A DNA stretch of 64,000 nt from Candidatus Magasanikbacteria bacterium CG10_big_fil_rev_8_21_14_0_10_36_32 (GTDB taxonomy: Bacteria; Patescibacteriota; Patescibacteriia; Magasanikbacterales; GWA2-37-8): NCBI GenBank assembly GCA_002778465.1, contig PFBV01000002.1, positions 2,312 through 66,311 of the forward strand, written 5' to 3'. Position numbers and translations under genes: made by a program. The notes under the pieces are model-generated. The model was not told the origin of the DNA, ran no database searches, and saw only the letters and a program-made list of their open reading frames with translations. Shown piece after piece: positions 37,095 through 40,247 of this stretch. The stretch's first letter is position 1. Each line of letters begins with the position of its first letter.

Positions 37095-40000
37095 ATGCTA
37101 CAGACTTTAGCCCGGACCGGGCGAAAATTTTGGAATTTTATCAGACCGCGCAGAAAGTGGGGTCTTATTTCGCTTTTTATTTTTGCCGGTGTCGGTTTGT
37201 GTGTTTATTTTTTTGGCGGAACATTGGTAAATTCAGCCGGTGGTTCTGAAGAAGTATATCAAGGCACTTTGCTTACTAAAATAGTAACCGATATTATGGT
37301 TTGGATTGCCGGATTTTTTATTCAGGCAACAGTTTTTATAATGGATTTTGTTATTGAAATAGCCGGTTATAGTAATTTTATAAATTCCAAAGCGGTTTTA
37401 TTTGGTTGGACGCTGGTGCGTGACATTGCCAATATGTTTTTTGTTGTGATTTTATTGATAATCGCTTTTGGTACGGTTTTGGGCGCTGAAACATATAGCT
37501 GGAAAAAACTTTTGGTAAAATTTGTTTTAGCGGCCGTGTTAGTGAATTTTAGCCGGATAATTTGCGGAATAATTATTGATGCCGCTCAGGTGTTTATGAT
37601 GACTTTTTTGAATGGTGTGGCGGCGGTAGCCGGTGGAAATATTATTAATGCTTTTAAATTAAATGATGTTTTAAGTTTTGATCCGAATGTGCAACCGGAA
37701 GGAATGACAGATGTCAGTGTTTTAGGTTCAGCCATTGCTTGTATGTTTTTTGCGGCGATTGCCGCCTTTACCATCGGCGCTTATTTTATTGTTTTACTCG
37801 GACGTTTAGTGACTTTATGGATTTTAATAATTTTATCGCCGTTGGCTTTTGTTTTAAATGTTATTCCAAAAACTCAATCTTATGCCGGACAATGGTGGTC
37901 TGAATTTACCAACAATGTTATTGCCGGTCCGATTTTGGCTTTTTTTCTTTGGTTGTCTTTTGCTGTGGTTGGCGATGGAATGCCTCATAATGAATTAAGC
38001 GATAATTCGGCTTTTATGTTAAATACCGAATCAGTGGAAAGTACGGGGAATAATAATGTAATGGGTGGTTTGGCTAAAGTTATGGAATGGGGAAATTTGG
38101 CAAATTTTATAATCGCCGTCGGTATGCTTTTAGCCGGCGTAAAAGCAACTCAAAAATTAGGTGTGATTGGTTCCGGTATGCTCGGGAGCGCGGTGGAAAT
38201 GGGCAAAAAAGTTGCGACAGTGGCGACTGGAATAGCGGCTGGCCGATGGTTGGCGCAAAAAGGTGTTGAAGGAACAAAAATTGCAGGCAAAGGCGTGTTG
38301 ATGAAAGCGCCATTTGTTGGCGGAGATGCTTGGAAACGGCGCGGTAGAACTATTGCCGGAAAAGTGTCTTCAAAAGTTCAGGATATTCAATATGCCCGCG
38401 AACAGGCGGCAAAAAAATTAGAGAAAAAAGGTGGTTTTGGAAAATTTGCCGCTGGAATTATTGAAACTGCAACTAAAAAAGAAGAAGCGTCTAAACAATG
38501 GGGGAAATTAGCCGCGATGAAAAAAGAAGTCAGAATGGAAGATATGGGTTTAGGTTCGCGTCAAGTTGGAAAAGATACTTTAGTGGAAAAAGTTCGTTTA
38601 GATACGCTTAAGGCGCAGAGTACTGCCGCCAAAGAACGCTGGTATAATAATGCTTTAGTTAAATTTTATAACGCGCCGGATGAATTAAAAGATTTACAAA
38701 CTCAGCGTGGCGGTTTAGCGACCAGAGAATCAGCGGAACAGGCGATTGTTCAGGAAGCCAGTTTGGAAATTGCTAAAGCTCAAGCTGAGTTGGAGAACAT
38801 AAAAGACAATCCGGAAAAAATCAAACAATTGAATGATAGTATTGCGCAGAGTACTGCTATTAAACAAAATGCTGAACAAAATTTATCTCAGATTGTTGAT
38901 ACCAAAAAAACACTTGATAAACAAGTTGATACTATTTTCAAAGACGATAAAAAATGGAACAAAGACAGTTTGATTGGAAAGGATATTTTAGAACAGAGAA
39001 TCCAAAAGGAAAAAAATATGTCTGATGTGGCCGCCGCTCAAGGTATGATGGAATTAAGTTATTTAAATACCGAAGCCGGCAGACAAGCTCAAGTCAACGC
39101 GGCGGAATCAAAAATTATTCAACAACAGATGGGAGAAACAGTCAATGCTCAAAAACAATTGGTTGAATTAAAAAAGATTGAAGAATTATTGAAAAAGCCG
39201 CAGCCGGGACAAGATGCGTCTGCTTTGTCCGCACGTTATCAGGCTTTGCAGCAGGATATGTATTCCTCCAAAGCCGGCGGAGAACAATTGCGGATTGATC
39301 AAGCTCGCGAGGCGGAAAAGAAATTAGCTGTGGCTCGTGATGAAAAATTAAAACAATCCAGTCAGTTACCTCGTTATTTAAGCCAAGTTTTGCAAAAACA
39401 AAATAAAGAGGATATTGATATGTATTCCTCAAAAAACTTTGACCAAATGATGGCTAATATTAAATTTTTGAGCGGTCAAATGGAAAAAGAGACAGATGTT
39501 GACAAGAAAAGCATAATGCAAAAAGATTTACAGAATTGGGTGGTAGCCTCCTTTAATCGCGGTTCTGATTTTGGCTTAGCCGCTTTGAGTACGGCAAAGA
39601 AAAATAAAGATATTTCCGCTGATAATGTGGATAGCGCCAGAGCTGCTCACTTATCGGCCTTTTTAGGGGAAGAAGTGGAACAGTCATCTGAAGGTGTGAA
39701 TAAGGCTATGGAAAAAATGAAAAAATTGCAGGGTGAAAACTTTGACGCTTTTATGACGAATTATGTTGGCGGTTTATCAATGATGGCTGATAATGGCGCG
39801 GTAACGCACGGCGGTTTGTATAAAATGGTGACTGATAAAAATACCGGCCGGCAGACTTATGAAGTGACACATAAAGATTATGATAAAGATTTGATTAAAT
39901 CCAAAAGAGATTATCATTTGTCTCAGGCTAGGCAAGCCGGTCGCGGATTTAATGGTTCTTTAGATTTTAAAGACGGTAAATTTAAATTAGACAGTGAAGT

Positions 40001-40247
40001 ATCGGTTAACCATGTTGTAAATTTGATTGGCGCTAGAACTTCGGTCGGTTATGCTAATATGCACAAGATGAATTTAGATTCATTAAGCTCTGCCATTGAA
40101 AATACTGATAAGGAAGAATTTTTGAAACAATTAGGTGAAAAATTAAGTAAAAGCATTACTGAAACAAAAGCGATGGAGATGTTATTAAAACGCATTTCGG
40201 GAAAAGCTTTAGATAAAATTAATAAATATATTACATCAAATAAATAA
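37095..40247 (+). CDS. VirB6/TrbL-like polytopic membrane protein with a ~700-aa K/E/Q-rich coiled-coil extension
   Basis: About 7 TM helices in the first 330 aa. The remainder is low-complexity and heptad-like. The call rests on position in the VirB4/PrgI cluster. Confidence 0.45.
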   Translation: MLQTLARTGRKFWNFIRPRRKWGLISLFIFAGVGLCVYFFGGTLVNSAGGSEEVYQGTLLTKIVTDIMVWIAGFFIQATVFIMDFVIEIAGYSNFINSKAVLFGWTLVRDIANMFFVVILLIIAFGTVLGAETYSWKKLLVKFVLAAVLVNFSRIICGIIIDAAQVFMMTFLNGVAAVAGGNIINAFKLNDVLSFDPNVQPEGMTDVSVLGSAIACMFFAAIAAFTIGAYFIVLLGRLVTLWILIILSPLAFVLNVIPKTQSYAGQWWSEFTNNVIAGPILAFFLWLSFAVVGDGMPHNELSDNSAFMLNTESVESTGNNNVMGGLAKVMEWGNLANFIIAVGMLLAGVKATQKLGVIGSGMLGSAVEMGKKVATVATGIAAGRWLAQKGVEGTKIAGKGVLMKAPFVGGDAWKRRGRTIAGKVSSKVQDIQYAREQAAKKLEKKGGFGKFAAGIIETATKKEEASKQWGKLAAMKKEVRMEDMGLGSRQVGKDTLVEKVRLDTLKAQSTAAKERWYNNALVKFYNAPDELKDLQTQRGGLATRESAEQAIVQEASLEIAKAQAELENIKDNPEKIKQLNDSIAQSTAIKQNAEQNLSQIVDTKKTLDKQVDTIFKDDKKWNKDSLIGKDILEQRIQKEKNMSDVAAAQGMMELSYLNTEAGRQAQVNAAESKIIQQQMGETVNAQKQLVELKKIEELLKKPQPGQDASALSARYQALQQDMYSSKAGGEQLRIDQAREAEKKLAVARDEKLKQSSQLPRYLSQVLQKQNKEDIDMYSSKNFDQMMANIKFLSGQMEKETDVDKKSIMQKDLQNWVVASFNRGSDFGLAALSTAKKNKDISADNVDSARAAHLSAFLGEEVEQSSEGVNKAMEKMKKLQGENFDAFMTNYVGGLSMMADNGAVTHGGLYKMVTDKNTGRQTYEVTHKDYDKDLIKSKRDYHLSQARQAGRGFNGSLDFKDGKFKLDSEVSVNHVVNLIGARTSVGYANMHKMNLDSLSSAIENTDKEEFLKQLGEKLSKSITETKAMEMLLKRISGKALDKINKYITSNK

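Follow-up and report, generated by a model that had tools for sequence, protein, structure and literature searches.

The gene at 37095..40247 (+) of the window, by which we mean the whole 64,000-nucleotide stretch of DNA that was analysed, encodes a protein in which a VirB6-like membrane core is followed by a tail that structure prediction and conservation resolve into three parts, not into a continuous coiled coil: a flexible, basic linker, a helical spacer that varies among relatives and a conserved head of globular fold. With moderate confidence we regard the gene product as the VirB6 subunit, of the extended-VirB6 class, of a chromosomal MPF_FATA-derived type IV secretion system (T4SS) typical of Patescibacteria/CPR, the group to which this ultra-small bacterium belongs, the tail being most likely cytoplasmic. 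Patescibacteria represent a large share of bacterial diversity, and passages of PMC12102498 and PMC12857230 describe their chromosomal T4SS as essential for epibiotic growth in one tested system, with the cargo and its selection unknown. The three-part tail, its orphan head and the occurrence of at least two tail types on one core provide a concrete target for the study of T4SS specificity and mechanism.

A VirB6-Like Membrane Core

An ATG-started open reading frame without interruption spans exactly 37095-40247 (+) in the ORF listing and encodes 1050 aa followed by a stop codon. Homology searches retrieved 491 relatives, every named source of which belongs to the Patescibacteria/CPR, and one of these homologues (P0053) is annotated as a 'type IV secretion system protein'. 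The basic N-terminus, with 7 K/R in 21 aa, leads into the hydrophobic helix H1 (37095..37232, +; aa 1-46), and this region resembles a signal anchor or signal peptide; directly after H1 many homologues display an AxA-like motif, and the query has VNSAGG at this site. Helices H2-H9 form a conserved polytopic core (37257..38159, +; aa ~55-355), which is recognized by AF2 modeling (pLDDT 83-94), fold matches, conservation and a profile match, and whose invariant residues include W105, N113, D162, R237, W242, P249, W267 and P279. Kyte-Doolittle hydropathy and the AF2 model place about 8-9 hydrophobic helices inside aa 21-351, where at least five are expected of a VirB6 protein; this comes close to the base of about seven transmembrane (TM) helices in the first ~330 aa that a first-pass annotation of this DNA had proposed.

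The same annotation had called this base VirB6-like, and fold matches, Pfam matches of homologues, a motif-level profile match and the operon context, with PrgI, TrsD and VirB4, support the assignment. When the full model was searched against the PDB with Foldseek, the top five matches were all TrwI/VirB6 chains (prob 0.96-0.99), although at a moderate rather than strong level (E=1.3e-2 to 5.4e-2, TM 0.30-0.41, identity 14-18%); TrwI/VirB6 of R388 (PDB 7O3V, 8RT9, 8RTD) is the best structural match of the N-terminal core. The TrbL/VirB6 profile PF04610 is matched by 2 of 21 close homologues (best E=2.1e-6), and precomputed matches to PF04610 or PF19590 exist for the homologues P0053, P0051, P0057 and P0074. 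Alignment of the family profile by hhalign with a bona fide PF04610 protein, the Rhizobium MPF_T VirB6 at L003:3563-4636, covered aa 233-291 over 55 columns (E=3.7e-4, prob 36%), a conserved hydrophobic motif region that is shared with TrwI. A tblastn search of P0053 against plasmids returned just six weak matches (E 0.08-1), all falling on the conserved core motif and two of them lying under genes annotated as T4SS proteins.

It is very improbable, in our estimation, that the N-terminal domain is instead an unrelated polytopic membrane protein which lies upstream of T4SS genes by chance. Such a reading could appeal to the query itself, which gave nothing at E<=1 against PF04610 and for which scans of Pfam, NCBIfam and PHROGs returned only Mago_nashi (E=0.26), set aside as a chance match; it could also appeal to the marginal E-values of the fold search. 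It would have to account, however, for five best PDB matches that are all VirB6 chains, for close homologues that do reach PF04610, for a profile match sited at the conserved VirB6 core motif, and for an operon position that distant genomes strictly keep.

A Terminator-Bounded Secretion Operon

The VirB6-like gene heads an operon that is bounded by terminators and includes PrgI/VirB3, TrsD and VirB4, the synteny of which is identical in two distant genomes (L001 and L002). A terminator-like hairpin with a 12-bp stem and a T-run (36141..36170, +) closes the giant gene that precedes the T4SS operon and delimits the operon on its upstream side. Behind the VirB6-like gene lie two conserved soluble proteins of unassigned function (40280..42461, +), one of 343 aa (40280-41311) and one of 395 aa (41274-42461), which keep the same position in related loci and show neither TM segments nor matches in Pfam, NCBIfam or PHROG. 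These are followed by a PrgI/VirB3-like small membrane protein (42464..42889, +; PF12666, E=8.8e-10) and by a TrsD/TraD-like protein related to the N-terminal part of VirB4 (42892..43581, +; NF041427, E=5.5e-10), whose equivalent in L001 and L002 is TraC-like. The VirB4-type ATPase (43592..45463, +) belongs to the CD1110 family, matching NF045971 above the curated cutoff (E=6.5e-106) and PF19044 as well. The last gene (45494..46090, +) encodes a 198-aa bitopic protein with an N-terminal TM helix and a ~160-aa domain; it occupies the same place in L001 and L002, family scans gave no match for it, and it may be considered a candidate VirB8-like subunit. A second terminator-like hairpin, with an 11-bp stem and a T-run (46107..46133, +), closes the seven-gene operon.

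The locus lies between housekeeping genes, and when the proteins of the window were scanned for known families, no relaxase or type IV coupling protein (T4CP) was matched, whether in the operon, near it or elsewhere in the window. Judged from sequence, the locus qualifies as a Patescibacteria-type, MPF_FATA-derived T4SS by its VirB4 of the monoderm/CD1110 kind, its separate TrsD and PrgI, its chromosomal position and its lack of a relaxase. The same picture emerges from passages of PMC12102498, in which the CPR gene set consists of VirB4, TrsD, PrgI/VirB3 and VirB6, and the systems are chromosomal and monoderm MPF_FATA-like, with VirB6 preceding PrgI/VirB3, TrsD and VirB4 and with relaxase and linked T4CP absent nearby; T4CPs are, according to these passages, rarely linked to T4SS in CPR generally. 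They also report the T4SS of Ca. Southlakia epibionticum as essential (Quinonero-Coronel et al. 2025, PMC12102498), and mention VirB6 in only 480 proteins, from which extreme divergence is deduced there. Unlike the Patescibacteria/CPR VirB6 homologues found in that work, our query is missed by the standard VirB6/TrbL profile.

The core of our protein, VirB6-like and located in this T4SS operon, would, if judged by its R388 counterpart, the TrwI pentamer, most likely constitute the central platform of the T4SS (aa ~55-355), where it would act jointly with PrgI/VirB3, TrsD and VirB4 from the same operon. A pentameric arrangement of this platform is what the analogy suggests. TrwI itself differs in being tail-less, in its length of ~340 aa and in having VirB5 and VirB10 as partners, for neither of which family scans of the window's proteins gave a match. 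VirB2 pilin is what a VirB6 pentamer would be expected to recruit, and among the window's proteins, which were scanned for families in general, no VirB2-like pilin was identified.

Little Sign of a Continuous Coiled Coil in the Tail

A helical tail rich in K, E and Q invites the idea of a coiled-coil fibre, but that tempting reading is wrong. The first-pass annotation had described it as a continuous, low-complexity, heptad-like segment rich in lysine, glutamate and glutamine and devoid of any globular signature. The compositional part of this description holds in a milder form, as the ~700 aa after the core form a hydrophilic stretch in which K (12.6%), Q (7.3%) and E (7.1%) are moderately overrepresented, K+E+Q amounting to ~27% and climbing to ~30-38% across aa 400-800; the peptide quoted at the time, AKAQAELENIKDNPEKIKQLNDSIAQSTAIKQNAEQNL, is located at aa ~560-597. 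The claim of continuous low complexity does not survive: 4.3% of tail residues lie inside SEG-like low-entropy windows, the mean 45-aa entropy, at 3.63 bits, is near that of the SMC of the window (3.67) and below that of LeuRS (3.84), and a search of the tail DNA for tandem repeats found none except two trivial 16-25-nt arrays. On the strength of these entropy values and the repeat search, an origin of the tail from tandem repeats or low-complexity sequence was rejected.

Coiled-coil propensity was assessed with a home-made, ad hoc heptad score that was calibrated with the shuffled tail, SMC arms and tropomyosin. On this scale the tail has a mean of 4.5, close to that of its shuffled version (4.0), whereas the arms of the window's SMC reach 7.2-7.4 and tropomyosin 9.4. 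A score >=7.5 is attained by 55-62% of SMC-arm residues but by not one residue of the tail, and no tail residue exceeds the 99th percentile of the shuffles. Significant 3.5-residue hydrophobic periodicity, comparable with that of the SMC arms, occurs in the tail only at aa 551-625 (z=4.1), and it is for this segment alone that the heptad-like description stands. The tail is mostly helical in the AF2 model, with a longest helix of 47 aa, and the uninterrupted heptad register of a long coiled coil is lacking.

That the tail is one ~700-aa K/E/Q-rich coiled coil, oligomerizing into a fibre or ruler off the envelope, is hardly credible in view of these data. Its mostly helical AF2 model, the SMC-arm-like periodicity at aa 551-625 and the differing length of the middle segment among orthologues would suit such a fibre; they are outweighed by heptad scores near those of the shuffles and far under those of SMC arms and tropomyosin, by helices of 34-47 aa with at least five Pro/Gly breaks between them, by a Gly-rich stretch of low AF2 confidence at aa 376-500, by a compact alpha/beta domain at aa 700-1050 (pTM 0.86) and by the absence of low complexity. 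The first-pass annotation had itself stated that a weak coiled-coil signal, or a tail predicted as globular, would refute it, and for most of the tail this is what was found. The likeness to long coiled coils, such as the SMC at 55741-58788, tropomyosin or TolA domain II, extends to the helical, K/E/Q/A-rich character and the local heptad-like periodicity at aa 551-625; the tail departs from them in its near-shuffle heptad score, its short interrupted helices and its globular end. Profile matches to TolA (weak, E=0.025-0.13), flotillin and apolipoprotein were judged compositional, involving helical K/A/E-rich segments.

Linker, Spacer and Head

The first part of the tail is a conserved, strongly basic, Gly/Ala/Lys-rich juxtamembrane linker (38160..38564, +; aa 356-490), which was delimited from conservation, charge and AF2. 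Its net charge is ~+10 over aa 352-430, with a median of +9 in the best 120 of 491 homologues, and it carries the conserved motif GG(D/E)AW.RRGR at aa ~409-418. The low AF2 confidence over aa 376-500 indicates that the linker is probably flexible.

It is followed by the spacer (38565..39191, +; aa 491-699), which AF2 predicts as five or six helices of 34-47 residues (491-524, 529-568, 573-616, 623-657, 660-699) that are broken at Pro/Gly. This is the protein's least conserved and most indel-rich part (occupancy 0.17-0.66 at aa 526-725). The distance between core and head ranges from 163 to 381 aa in 54 relatives, and variation of tail length across orthologues, which had been put forward as a check, is thereby confirmed. 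As this helical middle segment of ~210-260 aa varies in length, it could act as a spacer, and in this weakened form the idea of a ruler persists, while that of a ~700-aa coiled coil does not.

The conserved C-terminal head (39192..40244, +; aa 700-1050) is, in AF2 models made of the full protein and of the tail only, predicted to fold compactly with an alpha/beta architecture (pLDDT 92.1, pTM 0.86): one long helix spans 708-754 and is joined by a bundle of helices and by four short strands (909-913, 920-924, 957-959, 962-964). This prediction is at odds with the claim that the tail bears no globular signature. A fold search found no relative of the head among solved structures, and the head profile matched just 87 clusters out of 1.84 billion representatives. 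In every full-length match the head is C-terminal, and among those it never occurs apart from the VirB6 core, while short matches to the head profile look like gene fragments. A second tail type, unrelated to the first, was found on the same VirB6 core. Comparison with VirB5/TraC and with the type III secretion tip proteins IpaD/SipD revealed no similarity of fold or sequence to the head. IpaD had been considered for the tail and was discarded, as its weak sequence match (E=0.013) was lost with a tail-only profile, and a VirB5 fusion was dropped as the tail's identity, structural support for it being none.

Relation to Extended VirB6 Proteins

With at least five hydrophobic helices and a large hydrophilic C-proximal extension, here of ~700 aa behind the core, the protein falls into the extended-VirB6 subfamily, and the best 120 of 491 homologues are all at least 663 aa long. 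F-plasmid TraG and pCW3 TcpH also count as extended VirB6. The subfamily is defined in passages of PMC12857230, after Alvarez-Martinez and Christie (2009), by a core plus at least one large hydrophilic central or C-proximal domain; members given there are Rickettsiales RvhB6 / Anaplasma VirB6-3 and -4 and the MPF_FA VirB6s of 700-900 aa, and the role of the tails is stated to be 'not yet known' (PMC12857230). Since extended-VirB6 proteins are an established class (PMC12857230, PMC7648143), the architecture is not unprecedented, and its initial description as unusual for a T4SS inner-membrane component was overstated.

Several traits nevertheless set the protein apart. Within MPF_FATA, the closest T4SS class, VirB6 normally measures ~300 aa (PMC12857230). 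Unlike that of Anaplasma VirB6-4 (PMC7648143), the tail is without tandem repeats, and unlike the MPF_FA tails, which are described as unstructured (PMC12857230), it is not simply so: it ends in a conserved, confidently predicted head that has no detectable relative outside the family, a feature that distinguishes it from other extended VirB6 proteins. The passages of PMC12102498 drawn on here contain no description of a long tail, a head domain or two tail types.

Location and Possible Role of the Tail

Charge bias favors a cytoplasmic tail as the most likely arrangement, and hence disfavors the early notion of a structure that reaches out from the envelope. On family average, 12.3 K/R and 3.2 D/E fall in the segment that follows the last hydrophobic helix; the variable loop ahead of it (aa 296-330), with 1.8 K/R and 5.5 D/E, is acidic. 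Comparison by hand of several loop-charge schemes indicated that the positive-inside rule is best satisfied by an even number of membrane passes, which places the C-terminus inside. A cytoplasmic C-terminus is also found in the experimentally derived topologies of A. tumefaciens, Brucella and ComB6 that are cited in passages of PMC7648143. A parity count leads to the opposite result, as nine hydrophobic helices, all spanning and starting with the N-terminus inside, would leave the tail outside. In R388, cryo-EM revealed that only two N-proximal VirB6 helices cross the membrane and that the rest is periplasmic (PMC11294453, PMC12857230), which renders hydropathy-based topology unreliable for the VirB6 family. 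Because parity and charge bias conflict and R388 VirB6 defies such topology, plain helix counting was abandoned as unreliable.

A tail on the extracellular side of the same protein is a realistic, if disfavored, possibility. The chain would then leave the cell behind its last hydrophobic helix, the spacer would be a stalk of lineage-tuned length and the head would lie at the cell surface, contacting the host bacterium or the pilus and doing the work of a VirB5 tip or an adhesin, both of which are missing. Nine-helix parity with the N-terminus inside would yield such an orientation, most of R388 VirB6 sits beyond the membrane, on its trans side, and lineage-variable spacer lengths together with two tail types are what one would expect of host-facing modules; moreover, a PrgB-like adhesin was not detected in Patescibacteria according to passages of PMC12102498. 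The strongly basic juxtamembrane segment (net ~+10; family median +9) after an acidic loop, however, contravenes the positive-inside rule, and the IpaD match that might have hinted at a tip protein vanished with the tail-only profile. The tail also contains 0 Cys, versus 99 in the neighboring secreted giant protein of 2703 aa, which counts for little on its own.

If the tail is cytoplasmic, as we favor, the linker would lie against the ATPase or the inner membrane face, with the spacer keeping the head close to the VirB4/TrsD ATPase. The head might dock onto this ATPase or serve to bring in a partner or substrate, which would be consistent with a T4SS that lacks a linked coupling protein and a relaxase. 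That a single conserved core bears two tail types with no relation to each other suggests that the tail is a lineage-specific, specificity-determining module. We speculate, and would not press the point far, that the conserved orphan head, carried by its length-variable spacer, confers specificity on an essential CPR T4SS of non-conjugative type, either as a cytoplasmic substitute for the coupling protein, which docks substrate or ATPase at the VirB4 base, or as a surface device for host recognition that replaces VirB5 or an adhesin. In that event the two interchangeable tail types would mirror different substrates or hosts, and the tail would offer a handle on what episymbionts move through their T4SS.

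An alternative that we consider improbable makes the tail, or only its head, a piece of cargo akin to an effector, which a protease would free and which would then travel through the T4SS or beside it. The same idea has been proposed for extended VirB6 tails, namely the C-terminal extensions of Rickettsiales VirB6 paralogues (PMC7648143), and it could draw on the flexible, low-confidence linker (aa 376-500) as a possible cleavage region and on the lineage-specific tail types. Neither a protease site nor a secretion signal nor a toxin or enzyme fold was detected in the tail, however, and full-length matches from the search of 1.84 billion representatives never show the head without the VirB6 core. 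The linker, moreover, is conserved, and is thus not a mere tether.

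A VirB6-type subunit with a hydrophilic tail

The 1050-aa ORF at exactly 37095-40247 (+) of the window opens with ATG and encodes a protein whose hydrophobic segments are confined to aa 21-351 (Kyte-Doolittle). AlphaFold2 (AF2) models these segments as eight to nine long helices (pLDDT 83-94), and the remaining ~700 aa are hydrophilic (K 12.6%, A 10.4%, Q 7.3%, E 7.1%, Cys 0). ORF listing, hydropathy, AF2 and composition thus bear out the first-pass annotation in its reading frame, coordinates, polytopic base and K/E/Q-enriched helical tail. Many homologues carry an AxA-type motif (AHA, AQA, AYA, VFA) directly after the first hydrophobic helix, which at the level of sequence suggests signal-peptidase cleavage; at this place the protein has VNSAGG (within aa 1-55, window 37095-37260), and its first helix may either anchor it in the membrane or be cut off as a signal peptide.

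Comparison of the protein with Pfam and NCBIfam returned no match, which fits the extreme divergence of VirB6 that PMC12102498 infers from its detection in only 480 proteins. Fold comparison of the full model with the PDB puts TrwI/VirB6 chains from the R388 T4SS in all five top places (probability 0.96-0.99, TM 0.30-0.41), and two of 21 close homologues match PF04610 (TrbL/VirB6; best E=2.1e-6). Moreover, the family profile at aa 233-291 aligns with the conserved core of an MPF_T VirB6 from Rhizobium (hhalign E=3.7e-4, probability 36%), a protein that itself matches PF04610 at 3.7e-43. These results uphold the earlier "VirB6-like" label for the base and strongly support a VirB6-type subunit of its T4SS; the alternative that the protein, without a direct family match, is not VirB6 at all carries smaller weight.

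The T4SS operon and its neighbors

The genes 3' of virB6 are tightly packed. Between VirB6 and PrgI, in a position syntenic in relatives, lie genes for two conserved soluble proteins of unassigned function, of 343 aa (40280-41311, +) and 395 aa (41274-42461, +); their reading frames share 38 nt, the middle of one product is Pro-rich, and neither matches Pfam, NCBIfam or PHROGs. Both could be partners of the VirB6 tail in the cytoplasm. PrgI/VirB3 (PF12666, 8.8e-10) follows, and then come a 229-aa TrsD/TraD-like protein that resembles the VirB4 N-terminus (42892-43581, +) and the 623-aa VirB4 ATPase (43592-45463, +; NF045971, 6.5e-106). VirB4 is effectively split, as has been reported for CPR T4SSs. 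Directly after VirB4, in a position conserved in the related loci of two distant genomes (L001 and L002), stands a 198-aa bitopic protein (45494-46090, +), whose single TM helix is N-terminal and whose C-terminal domain comprises ~160 aa; it has no match in Pfam or PHROG and is a candidate VirB8-like subunit.

Two strong terminator-like hairpins, at 36141-36170 (12-bp stem and T-run) and 46107-46133 (11-bp stem and T-run), flank the seven-gene + strand block 37095-46090. Since they bracket it, this block is likely the T4SS operon, to the exclusion of the giant gene upstream and the ComF-like gene downstream. Gene order, including both of these outer genes, recurs in L001 and L002. According to PMC12102498, Patescibacteria T4SSs are chromosomal and comprise VirB4, TrsD, PrgI/VirB3 and VirB6, usually without a relaxase or linked T4CP, and the system is essential in Ca. 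Southlakia; the locus described here matches that gene set and chromosomal setting.

The giant protein immediately upstream (2703 aa; 28016-36127, +) has a signal/TM segment at its N-terminus and contains 99 cysteines. Its orthologues of ~2,566 aa occupy the same position in L001 and L002, where precomputed Pfam annotation of them is empty, and the giant protein is possibly a T4SS partner that is secreted or exposed at the surface. A 174-aa ORF between the giant gene and virB6 (36223-36747, -) encodes 4 Cys and a TM helix at the N-terminus; it may or may not be a real gene, as this gap holds different small genes in related loci. Here and in both related loci the operon is followed by a ComF-like phosphoribosyltransferase (46142-46852, +), and ComEC (12797-14278, +) lies ~30 kb upstream, which hints at a possible link of the neighborhood to DNA uptake.

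Structure of the tail

The tail had been described as continuous low-complexity sequence. SEG-like low-entropy windows hold only 4.3% of its residues, its mean 45-aa entropy equals that of the SMC protein encoded in the window (3.63 vs 3.67 bits), and Tandem Repeats Finder detects nothing in its DNA beyond two trivial arrays (16-25 nt); that description does not hold. Heptad character was scored as the best register per 28-aa window with a home-made function calibrated on controls (averages: tropomyosin 9.4; LeuRS 2.9; VirB4 3.6; shuffled tail 4.0). In the SMC protein, both coiled-coil arms average 7.2-7.4 and reach 7.5 or more at 55-62% of their residues, whereas the tail scores 4.5 and none of its residues attains that level or exceeds the 99th percentile of the shuffled sequences. 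A coiled-coil fibre, to which we give smaller weight, would find its signal in aa 551-625, the stretch quoted in the annotation and the only one with significant 3.5-residue hydrophobic periodicity (z=4.1; SMC arms 3.9-5.3); across aa 491-754 periodicity is weak (z=2.2).

The full-length AF2 model, built on an 86-sequence alignment, has low confidence at aa 376-500 (pLDDT 29-50), followed by six helices of 34-47 residues (491-524, 529-568, 573-616, 623-657, 660-699 and 708-754) with Pro/Gly breaks between them. From ~aa 730 to the C-terminus, four short strands included, confidence is very high (95-97). Modelled separately on 26 sequences, aa 700-1050 are predicted to be a compact alpha/beta domain (pLDDT 92.1, pTM 0.86). 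Given these heptad scores and this predicted fold, the claims of a continuous coiled coil and of no globular signature both fail, and a module of linker, spacer and head is strongly supported.

Conservation and tail types

Across 86 homologues, conservation is good in the core and juxtamembrane segment (aa 76-425), gives way to frequent indels at aa 526-725 (occupancy 0.17-0.66) and returns at aa 726-1050 (occupancy mostly >0.8). The juxtamembrane segment is Gly/Ala/Lys-rich, with the motif GG(D/E)AW.RRGR and a net charge of ~+10 (median +9 across 120 homologues). Against 1.84 billion representative proteins, the head profile matches no more than 87 clusters at E<=1e-3, and the head is the extreme C-terminus of every full-length match (proteins of 860-1400 aa), while short matches resemble gene fragments; the head is thus specific to this family. 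Release of the tail as a cargo domain is given smaller weight.

All 120 best homologues have the N-domain and at least 663 aa, and a local HMM finds the head in 54. In these 54, core end and head are 163-381 aa apart (median 257; ~345 in our protein), so tail length does vary among orthologues, mainly in the helical spacer. When the tails are clustered, two main types emerge that share one conserved VirB6-like core. Type A has 78 members, our protein among them, of up to 1147 aa; type B lacks the head and has 38 members, among them P0038, P0045 and P0054, of up to 1641 aa. The family thus combines tail length variation with the exchange of whole tail modules.

Comparison with extended VirB6 proteins

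F TraG and pCW3 TcpH belong to the extended-VirB6 proteins. This class, marked by at least five hydrophobic helices and by large, functionally uncharacterized hydrophilic domains in C-proximal position, includes Rickettsiales paralogues and 700-900-aa MPF_FA VirB6s (PMC12857230, PMC7648143). The architecture, previously called unusual, therefore has precedent. In MPF_FATA, the closest T4SS class, VirB6 is normally ~300 aa according to PMC12857230, compared with 1050 aa here. Distinctive are a tail neither repetitive nor merely unstructured, its end in a conserved and, as modelled, confidently folded domain without detectable relative, and a second tail type on one core. A CPR VirB6 tail is undescribed in the passages found by a limited keyword search, which leaves absence from the literature unproven. 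Of the first-pass annotation, the polytopic VirB6-like base and the helical tail composition stand; continuous low complexity, a continuous coiled coil and the lack of a globular part do not.

Location of the tail

The N-terminus is basic and is therefore placed inside; the aa 296-330 loop is acidic and variable and is therefore placed outside. When topology schemes were compared by hand from loop charge counts, an even number of membrane passes, with the C-terminus inside, best met the positive-inside rule. In the segment past the last hydrophobic helix, K/R outnumber D/E by 12.3 to 3.2, a charge bias that favors a cytoplasmic tail, and the classical topologies of A. tumefaciens, Brucella and ComB6 have a cytoplasmic C-terminus (PMC7648143). 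An extracellular stalk and head for contact, as would follow if all nine helices span the membrane, finds a parallel in the surface-exposed tails of Anaplasma extended VirB6 (PMC7648143) and draws on R388 VirB6, which has only two true TM helices (PMC11294453, PMC12857230); against the charge bias and the even-pass schemes we consider it rather unlikely, and we lean, with modest confidence, towards a cytoplasmic tail. By homology with R388, the core would form a central platform above VirB4. A cytoplasmic tail would have its flexible basic linker follow the membrane or the ATPase, and its spacer could bring the head close to VirB4/TrsD, where it would dock or recruit a substrate or partner.

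Other features of the window

The other genes are housekeeping (LeuRS, NusA, YidC, RF1, KsgA, SMC, ClpP, S16), besides ComEC. In the first ~53 kb (1-53000), every ORF of 200 aa or more reads along the + strand, and throughout the window each 2-kb bin has a positive GC skew; both fit a strong orientation of genes along the leading strand within one replichore. A 1921-aa protein (3918-9683, +) carries bacterial Ig-like domains (Big_6, Big_13, Flg_new_2), and its neighbors (2370-12794) include three single-domain response regulators and a PAS histidine kinase.
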